Below, one piece after another: positions 33,245-51,004 of a stretch of DNA of 64,000 bases. The stretch is taken from the NCBI GenBank assembly GCA_002314935.1, contig DCHW01000049.1, positions 30 through 64,029 of the forward strand. The letters run 5' to 3'. Made by a program: the position numbers and the translations under genes. The stretch comes from Clostridiales bacterium UBA1742. Lineage in GTDB: Bacteria > Bacillota > Clostridia > TANB77 > CAG-508. Position 1 is the first letter of the stretch; each line of letters opens with the position of its first letter. Below the pieces are notes generated by a model. The model was given only the letters and a program-made list of their open reading frames with translations, ran no database searches and was not told the origin of the DNA.

Positions 33245-33415
33245 AAAAAAAGAAATAAAAGAATATATGGGAGAAAGAATGAAAAATATTTTCCAAACAA
33301 TGAAATAAAATATATTGTATAAAAATTTAAATTTTATAAAAAAAATACTAGATTTTTTTAATATCTATATATAATAGTATTGAATTATAAAATAAATAAA
33401 AAAGGAGAAATAAAA

Positions 33416-36079
33416 ATGAAAAAGAAAAAATTAATAATTATATTAGTACTATTAATAATTTTAACTGCAATAGGAATTTATGGATATATTAATACCTCTA
33501 ATGTTAATGAGCTTGCAGATAAAGTAATATTTGGAACTATTTATACAGGGGATGATAACTTAAAAGAAGCAAATGCAGTAGCAATAAAAGGAGACACTAT
33601 TGTTTATGTTGGAAATGAAAACGATGTAAAAAAATATATTGGTAAAAAAACAGAAGTTACTGAATTTAAAAATGGTGAATTAATTACATCAGCTTTTGTA
33701 GATGGACATACTCATTCAACAGAATATGTTATTGCAGCAAATGCAAATTTATGTACAATTGAAGATGGAGCTACAAAAGAAGAATGTGTTGAAACTATAA
33801 AAAAATATATTGAAGAAAATCCGGATTTAGATTTTATAATAGCAAATGGATGGAACAATAGTGCTTTTGGTGAACTTGGTCCAACTGCTGATTTATTAGA
33901 TTCAATAGATACAGACAAACCAATTCTTGCATCTTCAAGCGATGGTCATAGTTATTGGGTAAATACAAAATTAATAAATATGGCAAATGTTACTAAAGAT
34001 ACAGAAGATCCAGAAGGCGGCGTAATTATAAGATACAAAGATGGAACTCCTTCAGGATGTTTTAAAGATACTGCAGAATATATTATTGATAAAGTTAAAC
34101 CTAATAAAACAGAAGAAACATATAAAAGTGGAATAGCTGCTGCAGATACTTTTAATATAAATCAAGGATATTTAATAAGGTTTCAAGCAGGAGATAATGA
34201 ACAATATGATTTAACTAAAGCACCAGTAATAGAATATTCGGAAGAAATGGATAAAGCTGGTGAATTAAGCACATACACGCAAGCATCTTTTATAATTAAT
34301 AATTATGATAATGCAGTAAAAATGGTAGACAAAGCAATTGAATATAGAAATTTGACTAAAGGTGGAAATTTTGAAGTAAATACAATAAAAATATTTTTAG
34401 ATGGTATTGTTGAAAATGAAGGTGCATATTTGTCAGATGCTTATTCAAACAATTCTAAAAATTATGGAAGTCCAAGATGGGAAGGCGAAGAATCAATTAA
34501 AAGAATGTCAGAAGTTATTGCAAAAGCAAATGAAAATGGTATGACGGTTCATTTTCATGCTATGGGAGATCAAGCAACTAATGATGCATTAAAAGCAATA
34601 GAAATGGCAGCTGAAAAAATAGGAATTGAAAAAGTAAAAGAAGCAAGAAATGCATTTGTTCATCTTGCATTAGTTAAAGATGAAGATTATGAAAAAATGG
34701 CAAAATATAATGTTATAGCTGTTCTTAATCCATGGGGAGTTAAAGATCCAAGTTATTATGCTGATCAAGTTTCTTTTTTGGGTGAAGAAAGAGCTGCAAA
34801 ACAATATCCTTATAAAAGCTTTATTAAAAATGGTATAAATATTTCTTTTGGTACTGATTTTGGTGCTTCATTCACTTATAATAGTATTGAATGTTTTCAT
34901 GTTTTAACAACAAGAGCAAGTATAAATGATGATCCAGAAACTATATTAAATGCAGATGAAAAATTAACTAGAGAGCAAGCTTTAAACGCAATGACAAAAG
35001 GTGGAGCGTACCAACTAAAAAAAGAAAATGAATTTGGTACAATTACAGTTGGAAAACAAGCTAATATAGTTGTTTTAAGCCAAAATTTATTAACAATACC
35101 TGATGATGAAATAATGAATACAGAAATAATTAACACAATGTATAAAGGAAAATGGAATAAACAAAAAGAAGAAGTACAAGAGAAAAATAATTCACTACCT
35201 ATGGAAATTTCTCAAGAAGATTGGGAAAGCTCTAAAAAGTTTGTAGATTTATCAACTGGTATAACTATGGCATATGTTGAAATGGGAAATCCTGATGGAC
35301 AACCAATTATTTTACAACATGGCATGACAGATAATTCTAGATCATGGAGTTTAGCAGCATCTTATTTTACAGAAGCAGGATATCATGTATATTTGCCTGA
35401 TTTAAGAGGAATGGGAAAAACTGATGCCCCTGATGGATATTATACACCAATTACTTATGCTACTGATTTAGAAGCTTTCTTTGATGCAATGGGTATAGAG
35501 AAAGCAATATTAGTTGGGCATTCTTTGGGAAGCTTTACAGTTCAAAATTTTTCAATAATGTTTCCAGAAAGATGTGAAAAAATTGTACTAGTAAGCTCTA
35601 TACCACAAAAAAATTATCAAAATGAAGCATTACTTGCTGCGTATAAAAAATATATTGAACCATTGAATGATGATGAACATCCTTCAGATGCTTTTATGGA
35701 TTCATGGTATGCTACAAACTTAAAAGAAGATGAATTTCAAGAAGTGTTTGACACATTTTTAGCAAACATGAAAAAAGAAGCACAAAGTTTATCAGCTAAG
35801 GCATGGAAAAATATATTTCTTGGCATGATGGCTGGAAATATTGAGACTTTATATTCACAAATTGATACAACAATTCCAGTTCTTGTGTTACATGGAGATG
35901 ATGACACAATGACAATTACGCAGTATCAAAAAGAACTATGTACAATATTTAATGTAAATGAAAATAGCTATAGAAATTATGAAGGAATAGGGCATAATAT
36001 CCAATTTGAAATTCCTAAAAAATGTGCAAATGATATAATCACATGGATTGAAAATGGAGAATTACCAATTAATAACTAA
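33416..36079 (+). CDS. membrane-anchored amidohydrolase (YtcJ-like) fused to a C-terminal alpha/beta hydrolase
   Basis: ATG 33416 after AAAGGAG. N-terminal anchor. Metal-binding FVDGHTHS and HFHAMGD motifs. The C-terminal about 290 aa carry GHSLGS nucleophile-elbow and HG..D...T features. Confidence 0.7.
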   Translation: MKKKKLIIILVLLIILTAIGIYGYINTSNVNELADKVIFGTIYTGDDNLKEANAVAIKGDTIVYVGNENDVKKYIGKKTEVTEFKNGELITSAFVDGHTHSTEYVIAANANLCTIEDGATKEECVETIKKYIEENPDLDFIIANGWNNSAFGELGPTADLLDSIDTDKPILASSSDGHSYWVNTKLINMANVTKDTEDPEGGVIIRYKDGTPSGCFKDTAEYIIDKVKPNKTEETYKSGIAAADTFNINQGYLIRFQAGDNEQYDLTKAPVIEYSEEMDKAGELSTYTQASFIINNYDNAVKMVDKAIEYRNLTKGGNFEVNTIKIFLDGIVENEGAYLSDAYSNNSKNYGSPRWEGEESIKRMSEVIAKANENGMTVHFHAMGDQATNDALKAIEMAAEKIGIEKVKEARNAFVHLALVKDEDYEKMAKYNVIAVLNPWGVKDPSYYADQVSFLGEERAAKQYPYKSFIKNGINISFGTDFGASFTYNSIECFHVLTTRASINDDPETILNADEKLTREQALNAMTKGGAYQLKKENEFGTITVGKQANIVVLSQNLLTIPDDEIMNTEIINTMYKGKWNKQKEEVQEKNNSLPMEISQEDWESSKKFVDLSTGITMAYVEMGNPDGQPIILQHGMTDNSRSWSLAASYFTEAGYHVYLPDLRGMGKTDAPDGYYTPITYATDLEAFFDAMGIEKAILVGHSLGSFTVQNFSIMFPERCEKIVLVSSIPQKNYQNEALLAAYKKYIEPLNDDEHPSDAFMDSWYATNLKEDEFQEVFDTFLANMKKEAQSLSAKAWKNIFLGMMAGNIETLYSQIDTTIPVLVLHGDDDTMTITQYQKELCTIFNVNENSYRNYEGIGHNIQFEIPKKCANDIITWIENGELPINN

Positions 36080-36142: not shown

Positions 36143-36382
36143 ATAGGTAATAAATTAATATACAAAAGTGAAACTCTTTGTAATAACTTTTATTTAGACG
36201 TAGAAATTATAGATGTTGATAAAGATCAAAATGAAGAATTGTTAATTAAAAGTATAGAATCTTCTCATACAAGTATTAATAATAATATTAATAATAAAAT
36301 TTTAAAAGTTCAAGATAACGAAACAAAGATTTATAGTGAGGAAGAATTTTATAAGTTAGACTTCAATGTACAAAACTTGTAG
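36143..36382 (+). pseudogene. 3' gene remnant without a start codon
   Basis: Open frame ...LDVEIIDVDKDQNEELLIKSIESSH...KLDFNVQNL* bounded upstream by a stop at 36140-36142. Followed by the cassette-type terminator at 36418. Confidence 0.3.
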
Positions 36383-36417
36383 AAAAAATTATATATTATT
36401 TCAAATATAGAAATATA

Positions 36418-36446: not shown

Positions 36447-36741
36447 TTTTAGGGTAAAATGCATGGCAGAATAGAGGAAGAAGATCATTTTTATATGAAG
36501 AGATAAAAGATAATTAATAGACTAAAAAATGTTAATTAATGAAATTTAAAAGTTTTAGATTTTATTTTTGTTCTTAACTCAAAAACCGAACATTTGTTAT
36601 TTGCAAAATTATTATATAAATTTATAAATAATTTTTATAATCTTATAATTTGATTTTATATTTATTAATTTTTAAGGCATTTTTAAAAATTAGGCATATA
36701 AGACCTGACCCATTAATGCAATCAAAGATTGCAAATGGGTA

Positions 36742-36868
36742 CCCCAAAAGCCACTTTTTGATATAGATGATAAATTTTATAAAAATTGTAGTTTTAATTA
36801 TAAAGAAATGATATAATATTAATAGTGTTTTATTGAGAGGTAATTAATATATCAATAGAAAAACAAAA
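36742..36868 (+). repeat. junction-repeat 3' end (copy A) plus a decayed stub of the 46062 antitoxin cassette
   Basis: ccccaaaagccactttttgatatagatgataaatttt matches the 3' end of the 138-bp repeat. 36774-36868 matches 45988-46083, with the RBS GGGAGG changed to GAGAGG and the ATG changed to ATA. Confidence 0.7.
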
Positions 36869-36925
36869 ATTCTTGAATATATTAATTTACAAATGATATA
36901 TTTAAAAATTGTATGGAGGTATTTT

Positions 36926-37540
36926 ATGAACGATGAATTAAAGAAATTAGTAGGAGATAATGAGAAAATTTTATATGAAGGTAAACCTAACAAAAAATGT
37001 TTTGTTTTTGAAAGCATTTTTAATCCATTATTACCATTTGCTGTACTATGGGCAATAATTGATTTTGGAATTTTGGGAGTATCTATTTTTTCATCTGATG
37101 TTCCAAATGAAATGTTATTTTTTATTATTCCATTTATGTTGTTACATTTAATGCCAGTATGGTTATATTTAGGTGGAATCCTTTTAACATTTAAACGTTA
37201 CAGAAATACATATTATATTGTAACAGACAATGCTATATATGTATCTGGAGGAACATTTAGTAAAACATTTAATTCAAAACCATTTGCAGAATTATCACAT
37301 ATAGATTTGCATAGAGGAATATTTGACCAAATGTTTAATGTTGGAGATATAATATCAACGTCAAGTCAATTTTCAAACAATAATACTAATGCTTCTATTT
37401 CAATAAATAGCATTTCTGACTATATGGCTGTTTATAATTTAGTAAAAAAATTGCAAAAAGATATATATACCGATGTTATGTACCCAAATGATAAAAGACC
37501 TAGTGAAAATCATGGGTATAATACAGAATATAAAGGTTAA
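36926..37540 (+). CDS. membrane protein with bacterial PH (YdbS/YdbT-like) domain
   Basis: ATG 36926 after TGGAGGT. Two TM helices followed by a YYIVTDNAIYVSGG-type bPH segment. Confidence 0.5.
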   Translation: MNDELKKLVGDNEKILYEGKPNKKCFVFESIFNPLLPFAVLWAIIDFGILGVSIFSSDVPNEMLFFIIPFMLLHLMPVWLYLGGILLTFKRYRNTYYIVTDNAIYVSGGTFSKTFNSKPFAELSHIDLHRGIFDQMFNVGDIISTSSQFSNNNTNASISINSISDYMAVYNLVKKLQKDIYTDVMYPNDKRPSENHGYNTEYKG

Positions 37541-37965
37541 ATATTATATTAAAGAAAAATAGTAAATAAAGTTATTTTAAATTTTTATAATATAAAATAA
37601 ATTAAAAATACAAAATTAGAATTTATATAATTTTAGTTTTGTATTTTTTTCTAAAATCGTTTTTATTTGATTTATTAAAATAAATTTTAAAGCTTTAAAT
37701 TTATTTAGTAATAATTATATATGAATTAAAATTTTATATATTTATATAAAGATATGCTGATTAATGATAGTCAGTAACAATTGCCAGTAAATTTTTTATT
37801 TCATAAAAAATTTCCAGACTGCGTTGAATTTCGAAAAATTAAAGTAATATAAGTTGTTGCATGAAGTATGATAAAAGAATATATAAAGCCTTATGTAAGA
37901 GGGCTTTCAAGCACCGAGAGATGACTCCAAAGAGGGGTTCTATTATTTTGCTCCTATTCATTTTT

Positions 37966-38103
37966 GCACAAAACTTTGATAGCAGACACCAGTATTTTAA
38001 AAGATATTCAAATTGTACAAGCCACTAATATCAATGCTTACAAAAATTCTATGTTGCTTTATTACCCCAAAAACCACTTTTTGATATAGATGATAAAAAT
38101 TTT
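37966..38103 (+). repeat. 138-bp cassette junction repeat, copy B
   Basis: gcacaaaactttgatagcagacaccag...ccccaaaaaccactttttgatatagatgataaaaatttt. Preceded by the variant-1 upstream module (about 37878-37965). Confidence 0.85.
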
Positions 38104-38207
38104 TTAAATTTGTAATGAAAATGTAATATTAAAATTATTGTAAAATATAAAAATTAAATATATAATATAGTAAATTTAATAAGTTAAATATTTAGAGGTA
38201 TTAAAAT

Positions 38208-39815
38208 ATGAAAACAAAAACAAGATTTTTAATTATTATGGTTATAACTTTAATTTTAATAATGATATTTAACCTAAAGGTTTATGCAGCTGATGAAGCG
38301 TTTACTTTAGAAGAAACTAATGTAGAGGTTAAGCTAAATGGTACAAAATGGCTATCATATAGTGGAGGAAGCGGAGCAATTACTTGGTCAAGTAGTGATA
38401 CAAGTGTAGCAACAGTAGAAAATGGAACCGTTAGTGGTAAAAAAATAGGAACAACTACTATTACAGCAACTAGAGGAGAAGAAACAGCAATTTGTAATGT
38501 AAATGTCGTGTATTATGATTTAACTATAGGTGGGAATGCTAGTAAAAATGTTTCGAGAGTAAATTTAGTATTAAACGAACATGATACTGAAAATTTATAT
38601 GCAAATGTCAAAGATGATAAATATGAAGCAGTAGAGAATGCTAACGTATCATGGTCAAGTAGTGATACAAGCATCGTAACAGTAGACAATAAAGGAACAA
38701 TAAAAGGATTAAAAGCTGGAACTACAACAGTTACTGCAACAGCAGCTGGAGTTACAGATTCTTGCGAAATAAAAGTAGTAAATGGACCAGCATTTACAAA
38801 CTTTTCTAATGCTAAATATGAATTACTTTTTGATACAGATGTAGACTTAAAAATAACAGGAGTTAAAGGAAATGATAAAAATAACTATTATTATATTATA
38901 ACTTCTGATAAAAATAAACCAACATTATGTAAGACAAATTATGGTGGATTAGATACAGAAACAACTGCCAATACAAAATATTTAATTACTAATACTGAAG
39001 AAGATTATATATATGCTAGGAATTTAGATGAATATGTTGAACGCAATCAAGATTTATATTTATGGATAATTGAAGATGTTAAACTTGAAGAATCATATTC
39101 GACAACTGAAGAAAATACCTATATATCACATTCTACAAAATTTGTAGTTGAAGGAGAAAAATTAAAAAGACCTGAATTACCACAATTAAATTTAATAATG
39201 AAATCATTATCAATATGGGGTGGCGTTGGTCGCAGTGGTGAAGAATCAAGTTATCTTCATTTTAGATTTCCATCAGGTACAGATAATAGAAAATTCAAAT
39301 TAAAAATAGGTAAAATTACAGATGATTCAATATTACAGAAAATACAAAATAACGATTATTCAGGTATAACAGCATTACTATCATATGCAAAAAATAATAT
39401 GGCAGTATATACAGCTGATTTAACAACAACAAGCCAAAACTACTATAGTAAAGAGACAGCATTATTTGATGGACTAAAAACATTAGAAAATAAAGCGTAT
39501 TATTACATATATGTCCAATTTGATGATGAAAATGGTAAATATTATCCAATTGAAGGTGTAACTTTAGGACAAGCTTGGATAAGCAGTTCAAGTGCATATT
39601 GGGATTTATGGGCATATACTTCTGACAATTTTGAATGGAATAATTTATCTAGTACACCTATAGAAACAGGTGAAACAGAGGAACCAGATGATACAAAAGC
39701 CCCTGATAAATTACCTAAAGCTGGTACTGTATATAGTATAGTTTGTGTAATATTAGCTTTAGTTGGTGGCAGTATATTTGTATATCGTAAATATAATAAT
39801 TTAAGAGGAATTTAA
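38208..39815 (+). CDS. cell-wall-anchored surface protein with Big_2 domains (LPxTG-type sorting signal)
   Basis: Signal peptide. Two Big_2 repeats (ITWSSSDTSVATVENGTVSGKKIGTTTITAT). C-terminal LPKAG plus hydrophobic helix plus RKYNNLRG tail. Confidence 0.75.
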   Translation: MKTKTRFLIIMVITLILIMIFNLKVYAADEAFTLEETNVEVKLNGTKWLSYSGGSGAITWSSSDTSVATVENGTVSGKKIGTTTITATRGEETAICNVNVVYYDLTIGGNASKNVSRVNLVLNEHDTENLYANVKDDKYEAVENANVSWSSSDTSIVTVDNKGTIKGLKAGTTTVTATAAGVTDSCEIKVVNGPAFTNFSNAKYELLFDTDVDLKITGVKGNDKNNYYYIITSDKNKPTLCKTNYGGLDTETTANTKYLITNTEEDYIYARNLDEYVERNQDLYLWIIEDVKLEESYSTTEENTYISHSTKFVVEGEKLKRPELPQLNLIMKSLSIWGGVGRSGEESSYLHFRFPSGTDNRKFKLKIGKITDDSILQKIQNNDYSGITALLSYAKNNMAVYTADLTTTSQNYYSKETALFDGLKTLENKAYYYIYVQFDDENGKYYPIEGVTLGQAWISSSSAYWDLWAYTSDNFEWNNLSSTPIETGETEEPDDTKAPDKLPKAGTVYSIVCVILALVGGSIFVYRKYNNLRGI

Positions 39816-39819
39816 AAAT

Positions 39820-39856
39820 AAGAGGAATGTTGTAAAATATATTCCTCTTATTTTTT
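39820..39856 (+). terminator. rho-independent terminator
   Basis: aagaggaat (39820-39828) pairs with attcctctt (39841-49), followed by a T-run. Confidence 0.65.
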
Positions 39857-39926
39857 ATAGGAAGATTGATTTTGAATATAGAGGAATATGCAAAGTAAAA
39901 TAATTATATAATAAGCAAGCTCTTTA

Positions 39927-40064
39927 TGCACAAAACTTTGATAGCAGACACCAGTATTTTTAAAGATATTCACATTGTACAAGCCACTAATATAAATACT
40001 TACAAAAATTCCATATTGCTTTATTACCCCAAAAGCCACTTTTAGATATATATGATAAAAATTT
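39927..40064 (+). repeat. 138-bp cassette junction repeat, copy C
   Basis: Same length as and collinear with copies B, E and F. Lacks the upstream module. Confidence 0.85.
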
Positions 40065-40141
40065 TATAATATTATATAAAACTATTAACGCACCAGAAAA
40101 ATATATATGTGGATATTTTAAATAAATGTTTTTCAAAATAA

Positions 40142-40170
40142 TGGAAATCATATAAAATATATGGTATACT
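40142..40170 (+). promoter_or_regulatory. candidate extended -10 promoter of the TA cassette
   Basis: TGgTATACT at 40162-40170, with a weak -35 TGGAAA at 40142-40147. An identical element lies upstream of the second copy (about 43685). Confidence 0.35.
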
Positions 40171-40202
40171 AATTATAATAATTTTAAAGGAGATTTTATA
40201 TT

Positions 40203-40379
40203 ATGAGTGATAAACAATTAATTTTAAATACAGTTCAAAGTATTGAAGATACAAAAAGTTATGAAGAAATTCTATATACTTTATTTATGCAATTAGAAAT
40301 TCAAAAGGGTATTACTGATATGGAAAATGGTAATGTAAAAACAAGTGATGAATTAAAGGAGATTATTAATAAATGGTAA
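40203..40379 (+). CDS. type II antitoxin (ParD/RelB-like), 58 aa
   Basis: ATG after AAAGGAG. Its stop overlaps the toxin start (ATGGTAA). Below the track cutoff. Confidence 0.6.
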   Translation: MSDKQLILNTVQSIEDTKSYEEILYTLFMQLEIQKGITDMENGNVKTSDELKEIINKW

Positions 40380-40684
40380 GATGGACTGATAATTCAATTT
40401 CTAATATTACAGATTTTATTGATTCTGCTAAAGAAGGAACAGAAAATACTGCAAAAGCATATATGAATAAATTAATAGACTATGTAGATATACTAAATAC
40501 AATGCCAGAATTGGGCAAGGTAGTTGAAAATTATATATTTAAATATAAAATTAGACAGATTGTTTATAAAAGCCACAAAGTTATATATCATAAAAAAGAT
40601 AATGATATAATTATTTTAACTGTTTTACATTCAAAAATGGATTACAATGCAGCATTAAACCGATTAAAGAAAATTATAAAATAA
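40373..40684 (+). CDS. type II toxin, RelE/ParE family
   Basis: 103 aa. IRQIVYKSHKVIYHKKDNDIIILTVLHSKMD is a typical ParE/RelE C-terminal fold signature. Confidence 0.7.
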   Translation: MVRWTDNSISNITDFIDSAKEGTENTAKAYMNKLIDYVDILNTMPELGKVVENYIFKYKIRQIVYKSHKVIYHKKDNDIIILTVLHSKMDYNAALNRLKKIIK

Positions 40685-40713
40685 GAAAGCAATAATAAAA
40701 GAATAATCCATTA

Positions 40714-40750
40714 AAAGATTAGGTTGAAATATATCTAATCTTTTATTTTA
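40714..40750 (+). terminator. cassette-end terminator (agattag family)
   Basis: aaagattag (40714-22) pairs with ctaatcttt (40735-43) plus a T-rich tail. Confidence 0.55.
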
Positions 40751-40954
40751 TGCCAAAATTAAGCAGAGTAGGGGAAAGAGCTCTATTTTCAACGGATTAA
40801 TAAAAAAATATAAAATCTATAATTAAAAAGTTAAAGTTCTTGTAAAATTATTTTTAAAAAATATAATGAAAATTTGAAAATAAAAAGATGAATTTATTAA
40901 TATGAATTTTGTGATTTTTTATATTTAGAATTTGAATAATTTTTGAAAAAATTT

Positions 40955-41091
40955 TGTAGGGGCGATTTTAATCGCCCGAAATTTAAAACGAATAATAAAA
41001 TTGTTATTAATAATATAAAATAACCAGCTTATAAAAGTCTGAAATATATGTAGAATAGGATATTACACGGGCGATTAAAATCGCCCCTACA
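40955..41091. repeat. MITE-like element with perfect 24-bp terminal inverted repeats
   Basis: tgtaggggcgattttaatcgcccg (40955-40978) and its exact reverse complement (41068-41091) flank 89 bp. Each arm is itself a hairpin (gggcgat/atcgccc). Confidence 0.7.
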
Positions 41092-41098
41092 TCTTTTT

Positions 41099-41125
41099 GT
41101 ACAAAACTTTGATAGGGGGACACAA
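41099..41125 (+). repeat. junction repeat, diverged copy D (core only)
   Basis: gtacaaaactttgatag matches the repeat core. The downstream about 120 bp is a different sequence of similar length. Confidence 0.55.
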
Positions 41126-41330
41126 GGCTTTTTTTGACTTTTCTGATAAAGAAACATTAATTTATCAGTATTTTGCGGCTACGAAAAGGCTTCCTTGTGA
41201 CCAATAATGAAAATGCTTTTTGACATAAATATAAAGTAATAAATGTTATATATATATATTAGAATATTTTGTTGAATAATAATATTTTATATGATATATT
41301 TAATAAAAATATAATTTTGGAGGATAAATA

Positions 41331-42668
41331 ATGAAAAATAAATTTATTGAAATTATAACAACTATATTAATTTGTTTATTGATACTATTATTAGATTACT
41401 TATTTTATTGGTATAAATTACCTGTTTTGCTATTAATTTTTCCACTAATAATTGCATCCTCTTACTTAATATCATTATTTATTTTCAAAAAAAGCAATAT
41501 TGAAAAAAGAAAAGAAATAGGAAAATTAACAAGACTTATAATTGTGATAGTTGCATGTATTGGAACTTTACCGTTTATTTATGATTTTACTTTGAATGAC
41601 TATACTTTTTTTGGAATTCAAGATATTCTTAGACCACTTTATTTTTTAACATATATTTTCTTGTCAATTACAATGTTAGTTTTGTCTTTTTTGTTTTATT
41701 TTTTATATAAAAATAAAACAAAAAAATTAAAAAATAATGAAATACCATTTGATATTGATGAACAAAGAGAAAAGAATGTTATAAAGACAATAAGCATATA
41801 TTTATTAATATTAATAATTTGTATTACGTTATATTTATGTAAATTACCTGGACTATTGTTTGTTTTTCCAACAATTTTAGCAATTATTTATTTAATATCA
41901 TTATTAATTTTTAGGGAAACAAATATAGCCCAGAGGGAAAAAGTTGGATCTTTAACAAGACCTCTAGCGGTAGTATTCGCATCATGTATAACTTGTTTTC
42001 TTTCTTTAGCTCTGGATATTAATTGGTTAAATTCAGATAAACACATAAAATTATTAGAGATTGATATAGCAAGTTCTATTGTATGCTATTTTTCATATAA
42101 AAATAAAACAAAAAAATTAAAAAATAATGAAATGTCACATGATAAAAAAGTAATTATTGAAAAGAAAAGTGATGAAATACTATTTGATAAAAAAATTAGT
42201 GTCGAAAAGGAAAAAAATAAAATAAAAATTGAAAATAATAGGTATAAAGGAAAAAAGAATAAATATATAATTAGTGATTTTTTATTTATAATTATATCAG
42301 CACTAATAATTTTATATTTTATTTTCATTATTGTTCCAATTGGTGAACAGGGAAATTTTTTCAATGAAGAAATCAATCCAAGAGTTGATTTGGTTACAAA
42401 ATATAAAATGATGGTAAACCCAATTTTTTGGGGATATTTAATTTATTGTAACCTAAAAATTTGTAATGTTAATAAATATATGAAATTTTTTGTATACCCT
42501 ATAACTGCAATAACATTTTTTATATCATTAATTTTTTTCTTATCAACATATGGAGGAAGTGCAATATGGTTGCTATTCTTTATTTTACCTATTGCGCCGT
42601 TAATTTTTTATTTAAATATTAAATTAATAAAAAAAATGAAAAACATATTAAAAATAAATAATACATAA
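41331..42668 (+). CDS. polytopic membrane protein with internal duplication
   Basis: 445 aa. Two copies of KLP.LL..FP.I.A..YLISL.IF...NI..R...G.LTR and of YKNKTKKLKNNE. The 38-nt DNA repeat at about 41703 and about 42092 is near-identical. Confidence 0.55.
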   Translation: MKNKFIEIITTILICLLILLLDYLFYWYKLPVLLLIFPLIIASSYLISLFIFKKSNIEKRKEIGKLTRLIIVIVACIGTLPFIYDFTLNDYTFFGIQDILRPLYFLTYIFLSITMLVLSFLFYFLYKNKTKKLKNNEIPFDIDEQREKNVIKTISIYLLILIICITLYLCKLPGLLFVFPTILAIIYLISLLIFRETNIAQREKVGSLTRPLAVVFASCITCFLSLALDINWLNSDKHIKLLEIDIASSIVCYFSYKNKTKKLKNNEMSHDKKVIIEKKSDEILFDKKISVEKEKNKIKIENNRYKGKKNKYIISDFLFIIISALIILYFIFIIVPIGEQGNFFNEEINPRVDLVTKYKMMVNPIFWGYLIYCNLKICNVNKYMKFFVYPITAITFFISLIFFLSTYGGSAIWLLFFILPIAPLIFYLNIKLIKKMKNILKINNT

Positions 42669-43450
42669 TAGTTAATTATACAGGTGAAAAGATGAATTAG
42701 GTTTAAACATAGATTTATATAAAAAATATAATAACTCTTGTGAAATTTTAAAAAAACAATAGAGTAGGGGAAAGAACCCTATTTTCAACAGGTTAATAAA
42801 AAATATAAAATCTATAATTATTTTGTATAATTTTATAAATTTTTTTATAATCATACAATTTAATTTTATAATTATTCATCTCAAAATCGTTTTTTAAGCG
42901 TTTTAAAATATAAATCCATAAAGTTATTATTTAATTACTTAAAATCGATTTTAAAGCTATATTTTTAGAATGATAATTTATATATTAGTTAAAATTTCAT
43001 ATAGTTTTATATAGATATGCTGATTATGTGCAATTTTCAGTATATCTGTAAAATGCCTAAAAATAGCCAAAAAAACGACGCACGAGAATCGATTTTAAGC
43101 CGCTTTTAAAAATTAGCCATATAGTTTGTTATCTAAAATATGAGGCTATTTTAAGGCGAGGCTCTAAAATCGATTTTAAGGCGTTTTTTTATTTAAGTAA
43201 TATAAGTTGTTGTTTAAAATATAAGAATTAATATATGAATATAAATATTATGAATAAAAATTATAATACTGAACAATAAAAATAAAAAATAGCCACATAC
43301 TGAAATATACTGAAAATGATTAAAATGCATATATAATGGCTTAATAATAACTATATAATAGATACTAAAGGAAGCTCATACACTAGTAGTATCAAGACTT
43401 GAAGGGGATACCTGAAAGAGGTATTCTTTATTTTATCCCTACACCTTTTT

Positions 43451-43588
43451 GCACAAAACTTTGATAGCAGACACCAGTATTTTTAAAGATATTCAAATTG
43501 TACAAGCCACTAATATCAATGCTTACAAAAATTCTATGTTGCTTTATTACCCCAAAAGCCACTTTTGGATATAGATGATAAAAATTTT
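43451..43588 (+). repeat. 138-bp cassette junction repeat, copy E
   Basis: Preceded by the variant-2 upstream module. 43168-43464 matches 48647-48943 over 297 bp. Confidence 0.85.
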
Positions 43589-43725
43589 ATAATATTATAT
43601 AAAGCTATTGACACACAAGAAAAATATATATGTGGATATTTTAAATAAATGTTTTTCAAAATAATGGAAATCATATAAAATATATGTTATACTAATTATA
43701 ATAATTTTAAAGGAGATTTTATAAT

Positions 43726-43902
43726 ATGAGTGATAAACAATTAATTTTAAATACTGTTCAAAGTATTGAAGATACAAAAAGTTATGAAGAAATTCTATAT
43801 ACATTATTTATGCAATTAGAAATTCAAAAGGGTATTACAGATATGGAAAATGGTAATGTAAAAACAAGTGAGGAATTAAAGGAGATTATTAATAAATGGT
43901 AA
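43726..43902 (+). CDS. type II antitoxin (duplicate of 40203..40379)
   Basis: Same length and near-identical sequence to the first copy. Overlaps the toxin start. Confidence 0.6.
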   Translation: MSDKQLILNTVQSIEDTKSYEEILYTLFMQLEIQKGITDMENGNVKTSEELKEIINKW

Positions 43903-44207
43903 GATGGACTGATAATTCAATTTCTAATATTACAGATTTTATAGATTCTTCTAAAGAAGGAACAGAAAATACAGCAAAAGCATATATGAATAAATTAATA
44001 GACTATGTAGATATACTAAATACAATGCCAGAATTGGGCAAAGTAGTTGAAAATAATATATTTAAATATGAAATTAGACAGATTGTTTATAAAAGCCACA
44101 AAGTTATATATCATAAAAAAGATAATGATATAATTATTTTAACTGTTTTACATTCAAAAATGGATTACAATGCAGCATTAAAAAGATTAAAGAATATTAT
44201 AAAATAA
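43896..44207 (+). CDS. type II toxin, RelE/ParE family (duplicate of 40373..40684)
   Basis: 103 aa. Five substitutions relative to the first copy (A18S, Y54N, K58E, N96K, K100N). Confidence 0.7.
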   Translation: MVRWTDNSISNITDFIDSSKEGTENTAKAYMNKLIDYVDILNTMPELGKVVENNIFKYEIRQIVYKSHKVIYHKKDNDIIILTVLHSKMDYNAALKRLKNIIK

Positions 44208-44297
44208 GAAAACAATATATATACTTTATTCGCTGTATGTCTATACTATTATAAAAAATTGCATGACAAATAGTAAGTTATAGAGGAGATTATAAAT

Positions 44298-44915
44298 ATG
44301 ATTAAAAGATATTTTAGTGGATTAAAATTTGGATTATTATTGCAGATAGCAGTTGGACCTATGTGTTTAATGGTATTTAATACAGCAAAGAATGTTGGAT
44401 TTTTAGTCGCTTTATCATTAGTATTAGCAATTGCATTAGTAGATGCATTTTATATAACATTAGCAAGTATAGGAGTAAGCAAACTATTAGAAAAAGAAAA
44501 GATTAAAAAGATATTTAAGATAATAGGTTCTATTGTACTTATGGTATTTGGAATTAATATTATATTAAATGTATTTGGAACAAATATTATTCCAGGATTA
44601 AACTTAAGACCGACATCAGCTAATATTTTTATGCAAGGCTTAATATTAACATTATCAAATCCAATAACAATAGTATTTTGGGGAAGTGTTTTAACTACTA
44701 AAATTATAGATGATAAATTAAAAAAGAAAGAATTAGTAATATTTTCAGTAGGCTTAGTATCTGCAACATTACTATTTTTAACAGCAGTTGCAATATTAGG
44801 AACAATACTATCAAGCTTTATACCTAATAATATTTCAAATATACTAAATGTTATTGTAGGAGCATTAATAATATTCTTTGGAATTAAGATGTTAATAAAA
44901 AAAGATAAAAACTAA
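44298..44915 (+). CDS. LysE/RhtB family amino-acid exporter
   Basis: 205 aa with six TM helices. LysE-type N-terminal GLLLQIAVGPMCLMVF and central NPITIVFWGSV segments. Confidence 0.65.
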   Translation: MIKRYFSGLKFGLLLQIAVGPMCLMVFNTAKNVGFLVALSLVLAIALVDAFYITLASIGVSKLLEKEKIKKIFKIIGSIVLMVFGINIILNVFGTNIIPGLNLRPTSANIFMQGLILTLSNPITIVFWGSVLTTKIIDDKLKKKELVIFSVGLVSATLLFLTAVAILGTILSSFIPNNISNILNVIVGALIIFFGIKMLIKKDKN

Positions 44916-44932
44916 AAATTACAATTTATTTT

Positions 44933-44962
44933 AAAGATTAGATTTGATAGCTAGTCTTTTTT
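44933..44962 (+). terminator. cassette-end terminator (agattag family)
   Basis: aaagattag (44933-41) pairs with ctagtcttt (44951-59) plus a T-run. Confidence 0.55.
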
Positions 44963-45786
44963 AATTTTTGATAAAAATGGCGAAGTAGGGGGAAGAGCTC
45001 TATTTTCAAGAATTATAACTTTTTATTAAATTTTATATTTAGAAAAAAAGAAGAACTAGGTAGTAAAATATTTTGTGCAATGTTATAAAATTATTTTCAG
45101 AAAAAAATTTTTGAATTAAAAATAATAATTAATAAAATATTTCTTAAAATTTAATTTTTGAATTTTAAATTTTGTTTGGTTAAAAATTCTTAAACCGAAC
45201 ATTTGATTATTATAAATTAATTTAAAAATTTTAATTATGATTTTAGATTTATAATTATATTTATAAAGTCTGAAAATCAATTTTAAGCAATTAAAATTAT
45301 TAACTAATTAAATTATTCATTTAAAACTTTATAAATTGATTTTGAAGCTTTTAAACTTATAATATGTAATTTGAATTTATAGATTCTAATTAGATTTATA
45401 CAATTATTACTATATATAAAAATCTCTGAAATTAGCTAAAATAATGGCTTACGAGAATCGATTTTAAGCCGTTTTTAAAAAATTAGGCATATAGTTTGTT
45501 GCGTAGCGTAAGCGAAGCCTGAAACATTTTTGAGCATTTTGTGATAAAAATGTTGCTGGTCAGATTAATATAAGAAATTTTAAAATTATGCCAGTAAATA
45601 ATTTCCAGAGTTCGCAATTAAAAATTGCTCACCAGAATCGATTTTAAGACGTTTAAATATTAAAATAATATAAGTTGTTGCATTAAATATAATAACAGAA
45701 TATATAAAGCCTTATATAAGAGGGCTTTCAAGCACCGAGAGAGGACTCCAAAGAGGGGTTCTATTATTTTGCTCCTATTCCTTTTT

Positions 45787-45924
45787 GCACAAAACTTTGA
45801 TAGCAGACACCAGTATTTTTAAAGATAGTCAAATTGTACAAGTCACTAATATCAGTACTTACAGGAACTTTGTATCGTTTCATTACCCCAAAAGCCACTT
45901 TTAGATATATATGATAAAAATTTT
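45787..45924 (+). repeat. 138-bp cassette junction repeat, copy F (most diverged full-length copy)
   Basis: Same 138-bp length as B, C and E, with substitutions only. Preceded by the variant-1 module (about 45698-45786). Confidence 0.85.
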
Positions 45925-46061
45925 ATAATATTATATAAAGCTATTGACACACAAGAAAAATATATCTGTGGATATTTTTTTGAGTAATTTTATAAAAATT
46001 GTAGTTTTAATTATAAAGAAATGATATAATATTAATAGTGTTTTATTGGGAGGTAATTAAT

Positions 46062-46304
46062 ATGTCAATAGAAAAACAAAAAATATTAAGTGAAATAGAA
46101 ACATTACCAGAAGAACTTTCAAAACAAGTTATTGATTTTATTGAATATTTGAAATTTTCACAAATATCTAATGAAGCTCCAGATAGTGTTACAATAAAAA
46201 GTAAAAAAGATTTAAAAGAAAAAATCCAAAAAGGAATTGATGATATAGAAGCTGGTAGAGTTTATACGGTAGAAGAAGTATTTGAAAAACTGGATAATAT
46301 ATAA
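46062..46304 (+). CDS. type II antitoxin (DUF2281/RelB-like)
   Basis: ATG 46062 after GGGAGG. ILSEIETLPEELSKQVIDFIEYLKF N-terminal segment. 80 aa. Confidence 0.6.
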   Translation: MSIEKQKILSEIETLPEELSKQVIDFIEYLKFSQISNEAPDSVTIKSKKDLKEKIQKGIDDIEAGRVYTVEEVFEKLDNI

Positions 46305-46323
46305 ATCCTTAGGAGTTGATAGA

Positions 46324-46647
46324 ATGAAGAAATATAAAGTTACAGTTTCTGAAACTGCTAAGCAGGATTTGGAAAATATCATTTCATATCTTAGATATGA
46401 TTTATCAGAAGATATTATTGCAGATAAATACAAGATTTTATTTAAGCAAAAATTAATGACATTAGAAGATATTGCTGAAAGTATGCCTATTATAAATGAA
46501 GAACTAATTGGACATAAAAATATAAGAAAAATAAATGCTAAAAACTATATTATTTTCTATAAGATAGATGAACATACAAATACAGCTTACATTATCAGAG
46601 TTGGTCATGCATTTATGGATTGGGAAAGATATTTGAAAGATATATAA
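46324..46647 (+). CDS. type II toxin, RelE/ParE family
   Basis: ATG 46324 after TAGGAG. 107 aa. IRKINAKNYIIFYKIDEHTNTAYIIRVGH signature. Confidence 0.65.
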   Translation: MKKYKVTVSETAKQDLENIISYLRYDLSEDIIADKYKILFKQKLMTLEDIAESMPIINEELIGHKNIRKINAKNYIIFYKIDEHTNTAYIIRVGHAFMDWERYLKDI

Positions 46648-47090: not shown

Positions 47091-47546
47091 ATGAAGAAAT
47101 TTAAAGATGTATCATTCAACAAATCACGGTTCATTTCTATATTTATTGGTATATTAATTTTTTTATTAGCTATAAGTATTTTGTGTATTAAGCTTAAATA
47201 TTCTTTTTATGTATCAATTCCCTTAGGAATAATAGTTGGAGCAGTAACATATTCAATTATTTTTTCTATTTTTGATGGACCTACTAAGAATGTATACAGA
47301 AAAAGATTAAGAGTCAGCTTAGTATATCAAAATTCAGCTACTGAAGTTAAGTGCAAATCAATAGAATTAAATCCATACAATACGAGATATGATGCGTTTG
47401 GCAATTGCAGATTTTACGCAATGTTGTTGACAGACAACAAGGTCTGGATTTCTATATGTGCTCAGAAAGAAAATGGAAACTTTATTCCACGAGCATATGA
47501 AATTGTAGATTTATCTAAGTTTTATCAATATTTTTCTTTCATTTAA
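47091..47546 (+). CDS. membrane protein, hypothetical; contains an in-frame CGG
   Basis: ATG after AAAGGAG. Two TM helices. The CGG at 47127-47129 must be read in frame (KS-R-FISIF), because a +1 shift there hits a stop after 10 codons. Confidence 0.5.
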   Translation: MKKFKDVSFNKSRFISIFIGILIFLLAISILCIKLKYSFYVSIPLGIIVGAVTYSIIFSIFDGPTKNVYRKRLRVSLVYQNSATEVKCKSIELNPYNTRYDAFGNCRFYAMLLTDNKVWISICAQKENGNFIPRAYEIVDLSKFYQYFSFI

Positions 47547-47718: not shown

Positions 47719-48012
47719 ATGAAAATATATATTGTAAGACATGGACAAGTTGATTTAATATTAAGATCAATAGAATTATATAGCTATAATCTTGAATTTA
47801 TGCTTGATGCAGATGAGTCAAATGAAGAAAAGAAGCGAGAAAAACTTGCAAAATTAAAATATACCTATGAGCAAATATTATCATGTCTTGCTGACCAAGT
47901 TAATGGAAAGGCTGAAGAATATGAAAAGAGGAGAACAACAGGTAGAAACATGCTTGGAGATAACATTATAGATATAATACCATCTAAAAAAGAAAAATTT
48001 CAAGTTGGTTAA
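47719..48012 (+). pseudogene. chimeric remnant: histidine-phosphatase N-terminus (MKIYIVRHGQ) fused to unrelated sequence
   Basis: Only the first about 12 codons resemble the RHG phosphatase motif. The remaining 85 codons are low-complexity and charged. Confidence 0.35.
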
Positions 48013-48929
48013 AAGCAGTAGAATAGGGGGGAACAGAGGAATTTTTATAGTTTATAATTAATTAATAAAATTTTTTAAAAATTATATTAAAAAATAATTT
48101 TTAAGTTGAAAAATAAAAATTATAAAATTTAAAATATAAAATAAATAATAAAACTTTAAAATTTAATTTTGAAAATTTTTTAAATTTTTTATATAATAAT
48201 TATTATTTTTATATTTTAAACCTCTCAAAATCGTTTTTAAGGCATTTTTATAATTAACTAATAAAAAATTACTCATTTGAATTATTATTATAATACTATA
48301 ACTTATATAAAATTTTAATTTATCAATACTTTTATAAATTAATTATAATTAAATTAGTAATAATTACTATTTTTGATGAATTATATAAATTAATGTAATT
48401 ATTGCAGCAACTTGGTTTTAGCTCAAAAATTGCCAAAATAATGACGCACGAGAATCGATTTTAAGCCGTTTTTAAAAATTAGCCATATAGTTTGTTGCGT
48501 AGCGTAAGCGAAGCCTGAAACATTTTTGAGCATTTTGCGATAAAAATGTTGCTGGTCAGATTAATATAAGAAATTTTATATAAAAATTTATACAGATATA
48601 AAATTATATTAATCAGTTATAAAAATTGATTTAAATGGATTGTCAGAATCGTTTTTAAGGCGTTTTTTTATTTAAGTAATATAAGTTGTTGTTTAAAATA
48701 TAAGATTTAATATATGAATATAAATATTATGAATAAAAATTATAATACTGAACAATATAAATAAAAAATAGCCACATACTGAAATATACTGAAAATTATT
48801 AAAATGCATATATAATAGCTTAATAATAACTATATAATAGATGCTAAAGAAAGCTCATACGCTAGTAGTATCAAGACTTGAAGGGGATACCTGAAAGGGG
48901 TATTCTTTATTTTATCCCTACACCTTTTT

Positions 48930-48951
48930 GCACAAAACTTTGATTTTGTGC
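48930..48951. other. perfect 8-6-8 palindrome closing the cassette array (candidate recombinase core site)
   Basis: GCACAAAA-CTTTGA-TTTTGTGC. The left arm plus spacer equal the first 14 nt of every junction repeat. The right arm starts a 17-mer (ttttgtgcaatgttata) also present at 45071-45087. Confidence 0.6.
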
Positions 48952-49136
48952 AATGTTATATATTCCTTTTTTGATACTTTTCCATATCTACTTCTGCCTC
49001 TCATCTACTATCCTTTGACCTGTTAAAGTGAATTCAATTGTAATTTACTATTTAATTAATTATTTATTTTATGTTTTATTTTTCAAATTAGATTTCGCCA
49101 TGATTTTTTATTTTAAAAATTATTTTTTTTAAGTAA

Positions 49137-49176
49137 ACGACACATCGCTCTGCAGAAGCAAATGTGTCGTGTTTTA
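49137..49176. terminator. bidirectional terminator at the right edge of the array
   Basis: acgacacat (49137-45) pairs with atgtgtcgt (49162-70), with T-rich tracts on both strands. Confidence 0.6.
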
Positions 49177-49198
49177 TTTCAATTTTACTTATTACGTT

Positions 49199-51004
49199 TT
49201 ATTCTAAAATTTTCTTTATCATCAATTTGTTTTTTCCATTTGTAAATTCATATTCTATTTTATCAGATATTTTTTTTACAATACCAATACCTAATCCACC
49301 ATATTTTCTATCATTTACAGATATATTTTTGTTTATTTCTTTTGCATTTAAAGGGTTATATGGTATTCCCCTATCTTCAAAAATAATATTTAAAGAAAGA
49401 GGATTTTTCGTTAAAAATGCGCTAACCTCTACCTTTCCTTCCGTTTTATTATATGCATATTTAGCTATGTTACCAAATATTTCATCAATTATTATATTAA
49501 TTTCGGCTCTTGTTTTAGTTTCAACTTTACACTCAGCTATTAATTTATTAATAAAATTTGTTACATCTTCAATTTTATCTGTTTTTGCTTCAAATGACCC
49601 ATTAATACTTTTATTAGATATAACATCTAATCCGTTATATTTTAAGCAAACCATAGTAATATCATCAAACTGTTCAGAATTGTTGCTAAAACTATCTATA
49701 TCTTTTTTTACATCTTTACAAATATCTTCTATTGATTTATTTGACTCATTTAATAATAAATTTTTTAATCTCTCTTCTCCATATTGCTCTTTTGATAAAT
49801 TTATTGTTTCTGTTATTCCATCAGTATATAAAAATAACATATCTCCCTTTTCTAGTTTAATATTAAATGAATTATATTTTGAATCTTTTTTTCCTGCTAA
49901 AATAAATCCAGATCTATTTTTTAAAAAGCAAATTTCGTTATTAGATTTTTTTAATATAGGATAGTTATGCCCCGCATTAATAAATTCAACTTTTCCTGTA
50001 GAAATTTCAAGAACTCCTATCCATGATGTAACAAACATACTTTCTTTATTTCCTTCAAAAAGTTGTGTATTTGTTTTTTCTATTGCTTCTTCAAAACTTA
50101 ATCCTAATTGTAAATTTGTTTTAATAATTGTTTTTGAAATAACCATAAATAAAGCCGAAGGAACTCCTTTTCCAGATACATCAGAAATCAAAAATGCAAA
50201 ATGATCTTGATCTATAAAATAGAAGTCATAAAAGTCGCCTCCAACTTGTTTAGCTGGAATCATATTAGCAAATATTTCAAATTCATTTCTTCCTGGGAAA
50301 TATGGCAAAATAGCCGGAAGCATAGACTTTTGAATATTTGTTGCTGTTTTTAATTCTATTTCAATTGCGTCTTTATTTTTTTCAATATTTTTATATTTAT
50401 CAATCATATCTGTTGTAAATATCATTAAGCCAAATGCTAATGCATTTGAAAATAAAAATGATGGGGCTACATTAAGTATTAAATTCCAACTTGTGCTTAA
50501 ATTTTCAGTAAACCACATGTATATAAATACTACGCTTAAATGTAAACATTCCATTAATATTGCAATAAAAAATGCAAAAACTCCTCTACTTTTTTTTGAT
50601 TCAAATGGTTTAAATAATAAACCACATAACATACCAATTAAAACAGTAGAAATTGAGCATGGAATTGTTGTTCCTAAAGGTAAATTATTTATTCCTTGAA
50701 TTAAGCGATGCATTCCTGCTATTAATCCAGCAATAATTCCACCTATTGGACCAGCTAAACATCCAGCCATCATTGGTCCTACATCTCTTATTGCAATTAC
50801 AGCTCCATTTGAATTTGTATAACCGTTAATAGTTGCATAAATACCAAACAAACCACCTATAATGCCTAAGTTAATTGCTACTCTTAAATTGCTTTTACCT
50901 TCCCCTTTTCTTAAAATTTTTTTAGTTCCTTGAAGAATAATAGCAATAAGGTTAATAACAGCTATAGTACCAATCATTGAAATAATTTCATTATAATTAT
51001 TCAT
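49199..51004 (-). CDS. 5TM sensor / PP2C (SpoIIE-type) phosphatase / HATPase (RsbW-like) fusion protein
   Basis: 601 aa. N-terminal LytS-type 5TM domain. PP2C block GGDFYDF...ISDVSGKGVPSALFM. C-terminal IDEIFGNIAKYAY...GGLGIGIVKK ATP-binding fold. Confidence 0.75.
   Translation of the reverse strand: MNNYNEIISMIGTIAVINLIAIILQGTKKILRKGEGKSNLRVAINLGIIGGLFGIYATINGYTNSNGAVIAIRDVGPMMAGCLAGPIGGIIAGLIAGMHRLIQGINNLPLGTTIPCSISTVLIGMLCGLLFKPFESKKSRGVFAFFIAILMECLHLSVVFIYMWFTENLSTSWNLILNVAPSFLFSNALAFGLMIFTTDMIDKYKNIEKNKDAIEIELKTATNIQKSMLPAILPYFPGRNEFEIFANMIPAKQVGGDFYDFYFIDQDHFAFLISDVSGKGVPSALFMVISKTIIKTNLQLGLSFEEAIEKTNTQLFEGNKESMFVTSWIGVLEISTGKVEFINAGHNYPILKKSNNEICFLKNRSGFILAGKKDSKYNSFNIKLEKGDMLFLYTDGITETINLSKEQYGEERLKNLLLNESNKSIEDICKDVKKDIDSFSNNSEQFDDITMVCLKYNGLDVISNKSINGSFEAKTDKIEDVTNFINKLIAECKVETKTRAEINIIIDEIFGNIAKYAYNKTEGKVEVSAFLTKNPLSLNIIFEDRGIPYNPLNAKEINKNISVNDRKYGGLGIGIVKKISDKIEYEFTNGKNKLMIKKILE

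Follow-up and report, generated by a model that had tools for sequence, protein, structure and literature searches.

How does the same 138-bp sequence come to stand, at one length and without insertions or deletions, between different genes of a bacterial chromosome? This question arises in a 64,000-nucleotide stretch of contig DCHW01000049.1 from Clostridiales bacterium UBA1742 (the window, ~25% G+C), for which an initial annotation described four full copies of the unit (B, C, E and F) and three partial ones (A, D and G) as junctions between gene cassettes. Here we propose that between 36.1 and 48.95 kb small integrative cassettes stand in tandem at the replication terminus, in a site that is palindromic and dif-like, a reading to which we assign a probability of about three in four. 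The 138-bp repeat itself is best read as the element-side part of four hybrid junctions together with the leader of one cassette family.

The repeats as junctions between cassettes

Repeat finding and alignment in the window bore out the four collinear copies, with zero gaps and 87.7–97.8% pairwise identity (B/E 97.8%, C/E 94.9%, B/C 93.5%, C/F 89.9%, E/F 89.1%, B/F 87.7%). The coordinates first given for B, E and F agree with the alignment, and those for C (39927–40064) were off by 1 nt. F had been described as the divergent copy, and the three lowest identities (87.7–89.9%) all involve it. The 15-mer ACAAAACTTTGATAG occurs 5 times in the window against 0.05 expected, TTACCCCAAAAGCCACTTTT 5 times against 0 expected, and all repeat copies are confined to 36.7–49.0 kb. 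Of the partial copies, A (36739–36787) keeps just the 3′ ~48 nt of the unit, and D and G keep only its 5′ part through CTTTGAT (the first 15–17 nt), preceded by conserved sequence outside the boundary originally drawn. A 31-mer common to D (41085–41115) and G (48916–48946) starts 14 nt upstream of the unit and belongs to a family of six copies in the window. Because homology extends different distances for different copy pairs, both upstream (~116 nt more for B/F, 298 nt for E/G) and downstream (46 nt more for C/E/F, 618 nt for C/E), the 138-bp limits are arbitrary and mark no natural boundaries. C and E represent a duplicated cassette, 95% identical across ~750 nt.

The picture of the repeats as junctions between cassettes is correct, and the next start codon, placed by the initial annotation 100–280 bp from the unit's end, follows at 105 nt (B) or 138–139 nt (C, E and F), the low end of that range. 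Cargo genes are all on the plus strand and comprise bPH_2, a Big_2 surface protein, antitoxin/ParE (twice), a 445-amino-acid (aa) membrane protein, LysE, DUF2281/ParE and two small open reading frames (ORFs). Copy G is a complete palindrome, two arms around a 6-bp central region, and B to F begin with hybrid sites in which only the left arm and central region of that palindrome are preserved. The copies are as follows.

36739–36787, plus strand: copy A of the repeat family, 3′ leader module only (CCAAAAG-CCA-CTTTT and promoter-like region); a decayed junction preceding the bPH_2 cassette (36893–37540)
37966–38103, plus strand: copy B (alignment), hybrid site (left arm and central region 37964–37979, then TAGCAGACACC) and leader; opens the cassette with the Big_2 surface protein (38208–39815)
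39928–40065, plus strand: copy C in register, hybrid site 39926–39941 (ATGCACAAAACTTTGA) and leader, promoter-like hexamers at 40041–40070; opens an antitoxin/ParE cassette (40203–40684)
41097–41330, plus strand: copy D, hybrid site TTGTACAAAA-CTTTGA (41097–41112), then the non-homologous leader TAGGGGGACAC...; opens the cassette with the 445-aa membrane protein (41331–42668)
43451–43588, plus strand: copy E, hybrid site 43449–43464 and leader, promoter-like TGGATA-16-TATAAT at 43566–43593; opens the cassette with antitoxin/ParE (43727–44207) and LysE (44298–44915)
45787–45924, plus strand: copy F, hybrid site 45785–45800 and leader, promoter-like hexamers at 45900–45929; opens the cassette with DUF2281 antitoxin/ParE (46062–46647), a 151-aa ORF (47091–47546) and a 97-aa ORF (47719–48012)
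48928–48954, plus strand: copy G, complete palindrome TTGCACAAAA-CTTTGA-TTTTGTGCAAT, proposed chromosomal dif-like site (left arm 48928–48937, central region CTTTGA 48938–48943, right arm 48944–48954)

An intact palindrome at the replication terminus

The 10-6-11 palindrome of copy G has the architecture of a tyrosine-recombinase core site. GC skew is +0.11 for positions 48000–48999 and −0.30 for 49000–49999, the cumulative skew peaks at 48 kb (41 nt from the site, −41 nt), and the gene strand switches there, all genes before it lying on the plus strand and all after it on the minus strand. Since the sign of the skew and the orientation of genes both change at this point, copy G sits where two replication forks meet.

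Metagenome contigs were scanned with a pattern that combined the left arm with the sequence directly preceding it, and this recovered at least 120 loci with 131 sites, ~127 of them genuine by inspection (loci are given L numbers below). The full palindrome is present at no fewer than 77 sites, and among the loci listed, changes in one arm are mirrored in the opposite arm (TTGCGCAAAA with TTTTGCGCAA). In these listed loci, GC skew is positive left of the site in 34 of 35 (mean +0.20) and negative right of it in 51 of 51 (mean −0.19), and its sign flips at the site in 25 of the 26 that could be scored on both sides. The cumulative skew maximum falls 27–56 nt from the site in 15 of 19 listed loci, the window included, and long-ORF bases lie to 88% on the plus strand left of the site and to 95% on the minus strand right of it. 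Both the skew and the strand tests are independent of how the loci were selected, and the switch of skew and gene strand at the site across loci strongly indicates that the palindrome belongs to the dif kind of site and is specific to the terminus. Presumably it is the site at which chromosome dimers are resolved.

A site of the B. subtilis type (…TATATTATGTAAACT) has 6 matches in the window against 8.4 expected, none of them near the terminus, and the palindrome sequence was not found in the literature searched. For C. perfringens and C. beijerinckii, published attempts to predict dif were unsuccessful (PMC3025954). Sites of the present type are common in gut metagenomes and, to judge from the literature searched, had not been described.

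On the right side of the site, ~190 nt (window 48941–49131) are ~80% conserved in L103, L106, L123, L157 and L168. The same stretch lies ~6 kb right of the site in L112 and ~2 kb right of it in L090, and because of this displacement DNA may be inserted on the right side too. A small minus-strand ORF running through the palindrome was set aside, as the right flanks differ completely among loci.

Hybrid junctions elsewhere and a proposed serial insertion

Outside the window, at least 65 hybrid junctions retain both left arm and central region, the latter being CTTTGA in 60 and CTTTTA in 5; together with the six window sites, these 65 all have TTGCRCAAAA followed by one of the two hexamers. Full sites show the same two central variants, and in L086 CTTTTA is present in both the hybrid and the full site. 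To the right of the center there are at least 15 unrelated continuations, including TGCCGCGACAG, TAATAYAAACC, TACTGGGAAGT and TACCCGGAACT, and in the window TAGCAGACACC and TAGGGGGACAC, with the switch falling within or directly after the 6-bp central region. Arrays of 2–3 sites were found in 14 other listed loci, with cargo always on the plus strand and recurring cassette types in differing orders and combinations. The full site comes last in every array whose end is visible (the window, L086, L119, L127, L140, L141, L142 and L147). Furthermore, L048 is a phage-like contig by its PHROG matches, in which late genes are followed by an Xer-like integrase, a 93-aa ORF, backbone, the sequence TTGCACAAAA-CTTTGA-TTATACCGTGA and early genes; its hybrid site reads as an attP of the hybrid type.

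Searches with the repeat itself reached less far. An exact 25-mer from it had zero matches in GTDB representative genomes, and a looser 18-mer genome scan gave 26 chance matches and one true relative, L005 from an uncultured Clostridium sp., with two junctions of the same kind. BLAST of the 138-bp unit against 40 viral loci and the 120 metagenome loci listed found nothing past the core, and annotated phage and plasmid collections held no match to the junction or the backbone motif.

Two kinds of cargo at these other sites may be mentioned here. The cassette upstream of the first junction in L005 (158–607) encodes a 149-aa ORF that by eye resembled a ToxN/AbiQ-type toxin and whose frame continues into the GAATCGATTTTAAG motif. 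Some cassettes in L093, L102, L130, L137, L150 and L187 carry a ParA-like ATPase (MKSAKIIAIANQKGG...) preceded by a conserved GTTATTGAAATAATATCTAACA, and for this reason plasmid-like elements may also use the site.

Because the junctions switch at the central region and arrays end in a full site, we propose that the cassettes were inserted serially by Xer-type, site-specific tyrosine-recombinase action. A circular element with a good arm, the central region and a poor arm would recombine with the full site. The left product would be a hybrid made of the element's left arm, the 6-bp central region and a degenerate right arm, and would remain as an internal attP-like site. The right product would regenerate the full site for the next insertion, such that a complete site would survive only distally, at G, where new cassettes would enter. 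Within a cassette, a sigma-70-like promoter in the leader would drive the cargo, and the terminator hairpin upstream of the junction would insulate each cassette from the next.

Tandem duplication and homologous recombination among backbone copies near the terminus, with cargo swapped and no site-specific integration, would account for some of the same observations: junction homology is mosaic and reaches different distances in each pair, C and E are a duplicated cassette, and in L177 there is backbone beside the site without cargo. However, homologous recombination gives no reason to expect 65 junctions with at least 15 unrelated right-hand sides that all switch within or directly after the central region. 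The hybrid site beside an integrase in the phage-like contig and the invariable last position of the full site in arrays also speak against this explanation, which we regard as improbable.

Serial insertion at a dif-like site is therefore the reading we retain, and several points have to be set against it. The scan pattern required the left flank, so the constant backbone next to the site is partly a search artefact. The palindrome has no likeness to the canonical Firmicute dif, and the name dif refers here to position and architecture only. The DNA is AT-rich, and promoter-like matches in it show no enrichment relative to shuffled sequence (155 versus 127 ± 12); outside the window, the 138-bp leader was found neither in GTDB representatives nor in the viral and metagenome loci. 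Exact-protein look-ups returned only the identical contig and one contig broken at the array, others came back empty, and no same-species pair of empty and filled sites was found in them. Toward its left end the array has decayed, and a clean chromosomal left arm is not visible there. Mosaic homology between copies shows that backbones also shuffle by homologous recombination. Finally, neither a recombination event nor circular forms were observed.

Candidate recombinases and the small helical protein

Three genes of the window bear on the question of the catalyst.

20250–21131, plus strand: XerD equivalog (TIGR02225, 347 bits against a cut-off of 329.6)
24796–25776, minus strand: Xer-like tyrosine recombinase, candidate catalyst (XerC model 230 bits, below the cut-off of 335)
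47719–48012, plus strand: last gene before the site, a 97-aa ORF, 5′-truncated or chimeric member of a ~110-aa helical family

The Xer-like protein falls below every family cut-off. Orthologues with 70–77% identity, keeping the same relative orientation, are found 1–8 kb left of the site in L177, L089, L138, L097, L161 and L168, and in related genomes the gene is the left chromosomal neighbor of the cassette region. XerD adjoins it in L089 and L177. In L177 only ~1 kb of backbone, without cargo, separates the Xer-like gene from a full site, and this looks like a locus with little or no cargo.

A further arrangement, two tandem Xer-like recombinases with a ~110-aa protein, all pointing at the site, was seen in L112, L114, L116, L122, L130, L152, L153, L184 and L190. 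The ~110-aa protein has the motif QVDLILRSLELYSYNLEF and no family match, and it is predicted with low confidence to form a two-helix hairpin (predicted local distance difference test score, pLDDT, 61). The 97-aa ORF of the window starts MKIYIVRHGQ (47719–47750), like the histidine-phosphatase-like last cargo in L127 and L142, and then continues as a member of the helical family; it is apparently a recombination chimera.

Window cassettes measure 1.2–3.1 kb, and no recombinase, phage, replication or transfer genes were found among their cargo. Because the last ORF belongs to the recombinase-linked ~110-aa family, they have the look of small, non-autonomous relations of larger elements that target dif. 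We infer that the acting recombinase would be either the host XerD together with the linked Xer-like protein or an Xer-like protein encoded by an element or phage and acting in trans.

The position of the Xer-like gene also raises the idea of an integron-like platform, with this protein as the integrase and the junction repeats as attC sites. The geometry is suggestive, a minus-strand recombinase being followed by all-plus cassettes that include toxin-antitoxin genes, and integron integrases fall within the Xer-like clade, their model being weakly matched by the protein. Nevertheless, that match reaches 108.8 bits against a cut-off of 265, and ~10 kb of ordinary-looking, repeat-free genes separate the recombinase from the first junction. 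The junctions have neither imperfect hairpins nor a GTTRRRY core (the core is TTGCACAAAA-CTTTGA), and their folds are insignificant. Unlike in an integron, each cassette has promoter-like and terminator-like signals of its own, and the intact site stands at the end far from the recombinase, coinciding with the terminus. An integron in this sense is unlikely, slightly more so than homologous recombination.

Anatomy of the 138-bp unit

In terms of the palindrome, the unit is composed of the last 8 nt of the left arm TTGCACAAAA, the 6-bp CTTTGA, the degenerate arm TAGCAGACACC and a leader of ~113 nt. Its 20 variable columns are distributed as 0 of 25 at positions 1–25, 3 of 31 at 26–56, 14 of 42 at 57–98 and 3 of 40 at 99–138, and the invariant head reads GCACAAAA-CTTTGA-TAGCAGACACC. 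The initial annotation had taken the equal length of the copies to imply selection, whether on a protein-coding frame, on nucleic-acid structure or on an architecture for protein binding. Length is a weak argument here: the copies are 2–12% diverged and the homologous stretches flanking them are equally indel-free, so recent shared ancestry and mosaic recombination explain it adequately. Protein binding holds up for the first ~25 nt only, which are invariant and match one arm and the central region of the palindrome; neither of the other two options found support.

The leader, which includes TTGATAGCAGACACCAGTAT, is common to B, C, E and F, whose cargo differs, and copy D joins the same core to an unrelated leader. 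At the tail of the unit a small palindrome, CCAAAAG-CCA-CTTTTGG, overlaps a promoter-like TTGGAT-17-TATAAT, which a consensus scan placed at the same position in C, E and F; this element is only a lead. Terminator-like hairpins with a T-run stand on the plus strand just before junctions B, E, F and G (10 such sites against 2.1 expected).

37923–37939: terminator-like hairpin before B
43403–43429: terminator-like hairpin before E
45742–45762: terminator-like hairpin before F
48882–48908, plus strand: intrinsic-terminator-like hairpin and T-run, directly upstream of the copy G site

In other loci the terminator stems differ in sequence yet keep their pairing (read by eye from the listing). Leaders of other genomes are likewise family-specific, with the first start codon ~110–330 nt past the crossover in the arrays examined. 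A role of the leader as the cassette's own promoter region fits the terminator directly upstream of every core and the start-codon spacing in arrays.

Folding gave little reason to see a structured nucleic acid in the unit. Against shuffles, z-scores were insignificant for RNA (−1.5 to +1.85) and DNA (−0.15 to +1.13), compensatory pair changes were zero, and Rfam had no match in the window at gathering score, its only match in the array at E ≤ 1 being PhrS (E 0.92). The window has no tRNA or tmRNA target. A more specific form of this explanation is a structured RNA or a folded single-stranded DNA attP, as in CTX-phi, on the minus strand, with pairing between positions 57–87 and the core's reverse complement. 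The minus-strand consensus fold has −20.9 kcal/mol against −6.35 for the plus strand, 98% of the cells of its helix are paired against 44–52% with slid partners, ten one-sided changes are all kept by wobble, and 13 of the 15 E/F differences are transitions. The helix, however, has no compensatory double change, its 3′ partner is the invariant core, and the structure was derived from the same four sequences. Minimum free energy z-scores are −1.4 (E), −1.5 (B) and +0.98 (F) as RNA and remain at −0.15 to +1.13 as DNA, and other cassette families have unrelated leaders in this position. We consider such a fold very unlikely to be what the repeat encodes.

A protein-coding remnant or small ORF, for which the 63-aa minus-strand ORF at 39848–40039 and a minus-strand frame open through C, E and F might argue, can be practically dismissed, as that frame is interrupted by a stop in copy B, no frame is free of stops in all copies, variable columns lack 3-periodicity (8/8/4), and E and F differ by 9 non-synonymous and 2 synonymous changes on manual translation.

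Two details of the leader stand apart. Nine of the 15 E/F differences fall in an 18-nt stretch (45864–45881 in copy F, unit positions 78–95) and all nine are transitions, in both directions; on the minus strand, these positions can still form wobble pairs with the core, in a fold that is not significant. A second core-like direct repeat in the leader (positions ~68–90, AATGCTTACAAAAATTCTATG) is missing from F and was not treated as functional.

Backbone motifs and flanking genes

The DNA between cargo and the next core contains recurring motifs, and one further possible core lies at the left end of the array.

36366–36385, plus strand: AATGTACAAAACTTGTAG, possibly the oldest core in decayed form, 2 nt short of full core length, recognized by direct reading
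43087–43102, plus strand: backbone motif AATCGATTTTAAGSCG, also starting at 42943, 43168, 45456, 45636, 48229, 48453 and 48647
44984–45009, plus strand: motif AGTAGGGGRAAGAGC..TTTCAA, opening the conserved 3′ backbone after cargo, also at 40767–40792 and 42763–42788
45071–45081, plus strand: lone right-arm-like half-site TTTTGTGCAAT(GTTATA) in the backbone of cassette E

The decayed core is a low-confidence call, and a mismatch search did not recover it. Degenerate forms of AGTAGGGGRAAGAGC..TTTCAA are present at 36468 and ~48016, and in L177 and L190 this motif comes after the small-protein gene. The motif AATCGATTTTAAGSCG has 8 matches between 42943 and 48662 against 0.06 expected in the window. 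In the form (CGACGCACGA)GAATCGATTTTAAGSCGTTTTT, often followed by ..TTAGACATATAGTTTGTTG, the backbone motif occurs 1–4 times per inter-cassette spacer and holds the 12-bp palindrome AAAATCGATTTT. The backbone motif (RAATCGATTTTAAGSCGYTTTT) is also present in 26 IMG/VR viral contigs (L030–L055), 21 of them without a dif-like core; in the other 5 the same terminator and core follow it.

The half-site (TTTTGTGCAATGTTATA) takes the form TTT(T)GTGCAATGTT(ATA) at 45071–45087 in the window, 4364–4390 in L177 and ~8548–8562 in L190. It lies ~80 nt (window, L177) to ~190 nt (L190) past the AGTAGGGG motif and ~700–800 nt before the core, and may serve as an accessory binding site or be left over from an earlier one.

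The repeats are flanked by an amidohydrolase/hydrolase gene (33380–36079, plus strand) and a SpoIIE-family gene (49199–51004, minus strand). What remains of the window is ordinary spore-former chromosome, with RuvB, a MurD-like ligase, PolA, SpoIIM, the XerD equivalog, IMP dehydrogenase and GMP synthase. PolA appears split (8973–11595): the exonuclease domains and the first ~100 polymerase-model positions fall in a 614-aa ORF, and after a 157-nt gap a 206-aa ORF covers model positions 176–381, which could be due to a frameshift, a pseudogene or an assembly error. The gene for the 445-aa membrane protein (41331–42668), whose product has zero Pfam matches, contains internal repeats (41685–41776 versus 42075–42166, 78% identity) and a 39-nt unit present three times.

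Implications and comparison with known systems

A wider scenario can be put forward tentatively, at odds clearly short of even. A large group of low-GC Clostridium-like bacteria, many of them gut-metagenomic, would have an undescribed dif (TTGCRCAAAA-CTTTGA-TTTTGYGCAAT) with a dedicated, linked Xer-like recombinase, the site doubling as a gene-capture platform. Phages and elements with tandem Xer-like recombinases and the ~110-aa helical protein would integrate there, and miniature self-expressed cassettes (terminator, attP core, leader/promoter, cargo, backbone) would be mobilized in trans and stacked as in an integron. The main reading, if correct, would itself provide a candidate site of dimer resolution for those Clostridia whose dif could not be predicted, a simple sequence signature for locating replication termini and cargo in fragmented metagenome assemblies, and a second route besides integrons for stacking small self-contained cassettes at one chromosomal address. 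Cargo at such sites comprises toxin-antitoxin pairs, surface and membrane proteins, and Fic/RhuM-like and ParA-bearing modules.

In tandem arrays of integrative and conjugative elements (ICEs) and cis-mobilizable elements (CIMEs), such as those involving ICESt1 of Streptococcus thermophilus, integrase-less elements accrete and leave internal attP-like and partial end sites. The array described here differs in its target, a dif-like terminus site in place of a tRNA or gene 3′ end, and in its cassette-sized units. With integrons it shares a one-directional, toxin-antitoxin-rich cassette array whose sites would be used by an Xer-clade tyrosine recombinase. In contrast to integrons, it has no IntI, attI or Pc, its sites are not attC hairpins, its cassettes have their own promoter and terminator signals, and its intact site is distal. 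Acinetobacter pdif modules (PMC5790767, PMC7399989) hold small cargo, including toxin-antitoxin genes, between Xer-type sites; those sites are plasmid-borne and alternate in orientation, whereas the sites here are direct, chromosomal and at the terminus.

In the XerS/difSL and XerH/difH systems an atypical dif near the terminus has genetic linkage to an Xer-like recombinase dedicated to it (PMC1914069). The Xer-like gene 1–8 kb from the site in six loci is comparable; however, a bona fide XerD is also present here, and the linkage is looser and interrupted by cassettes.

The closest likeness is to arrays of integrative mobile elements exploiting Xer (IMEX) at dif, such as TLC-phi, CTX-phi and RS1 of Vibrio cholerae, the Neisseria gonococcal genetic island (GGI) and Legionella LME-1 with XerL, which are likewise elements at a terminus site. 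In TLC-phi attP and difGGI, one arm and the central region are kept and the other arm is degenerate (PMC5357621), as is the case at the junctions described here. A full site regenerated on one side only, permitting serial insertion, is a second shared trait. LME-1 is a mobile element that revealed an unrecognised dif (PMC9765430), and the present junctions likewise point to a non-canonical one. There are also differences: the host is a Clostridium-like Firmicute, and the near-perfect 10-6-11 palindrome is unlike the canonical dif. The window elements, at 1.2–3.1 kb, have a terminator, core, leader and promoter architecture without phage, replication or transfer genes. Related larger elements carry one or two Xer-like recombinases of their own together with the small protein, and because of this do not strictly exploit the host Xer. 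With these distinctions, an IMEX-like array of cassettes, standing at a dif-like site that is palindromic and non-canonical, is the best reading of the region.

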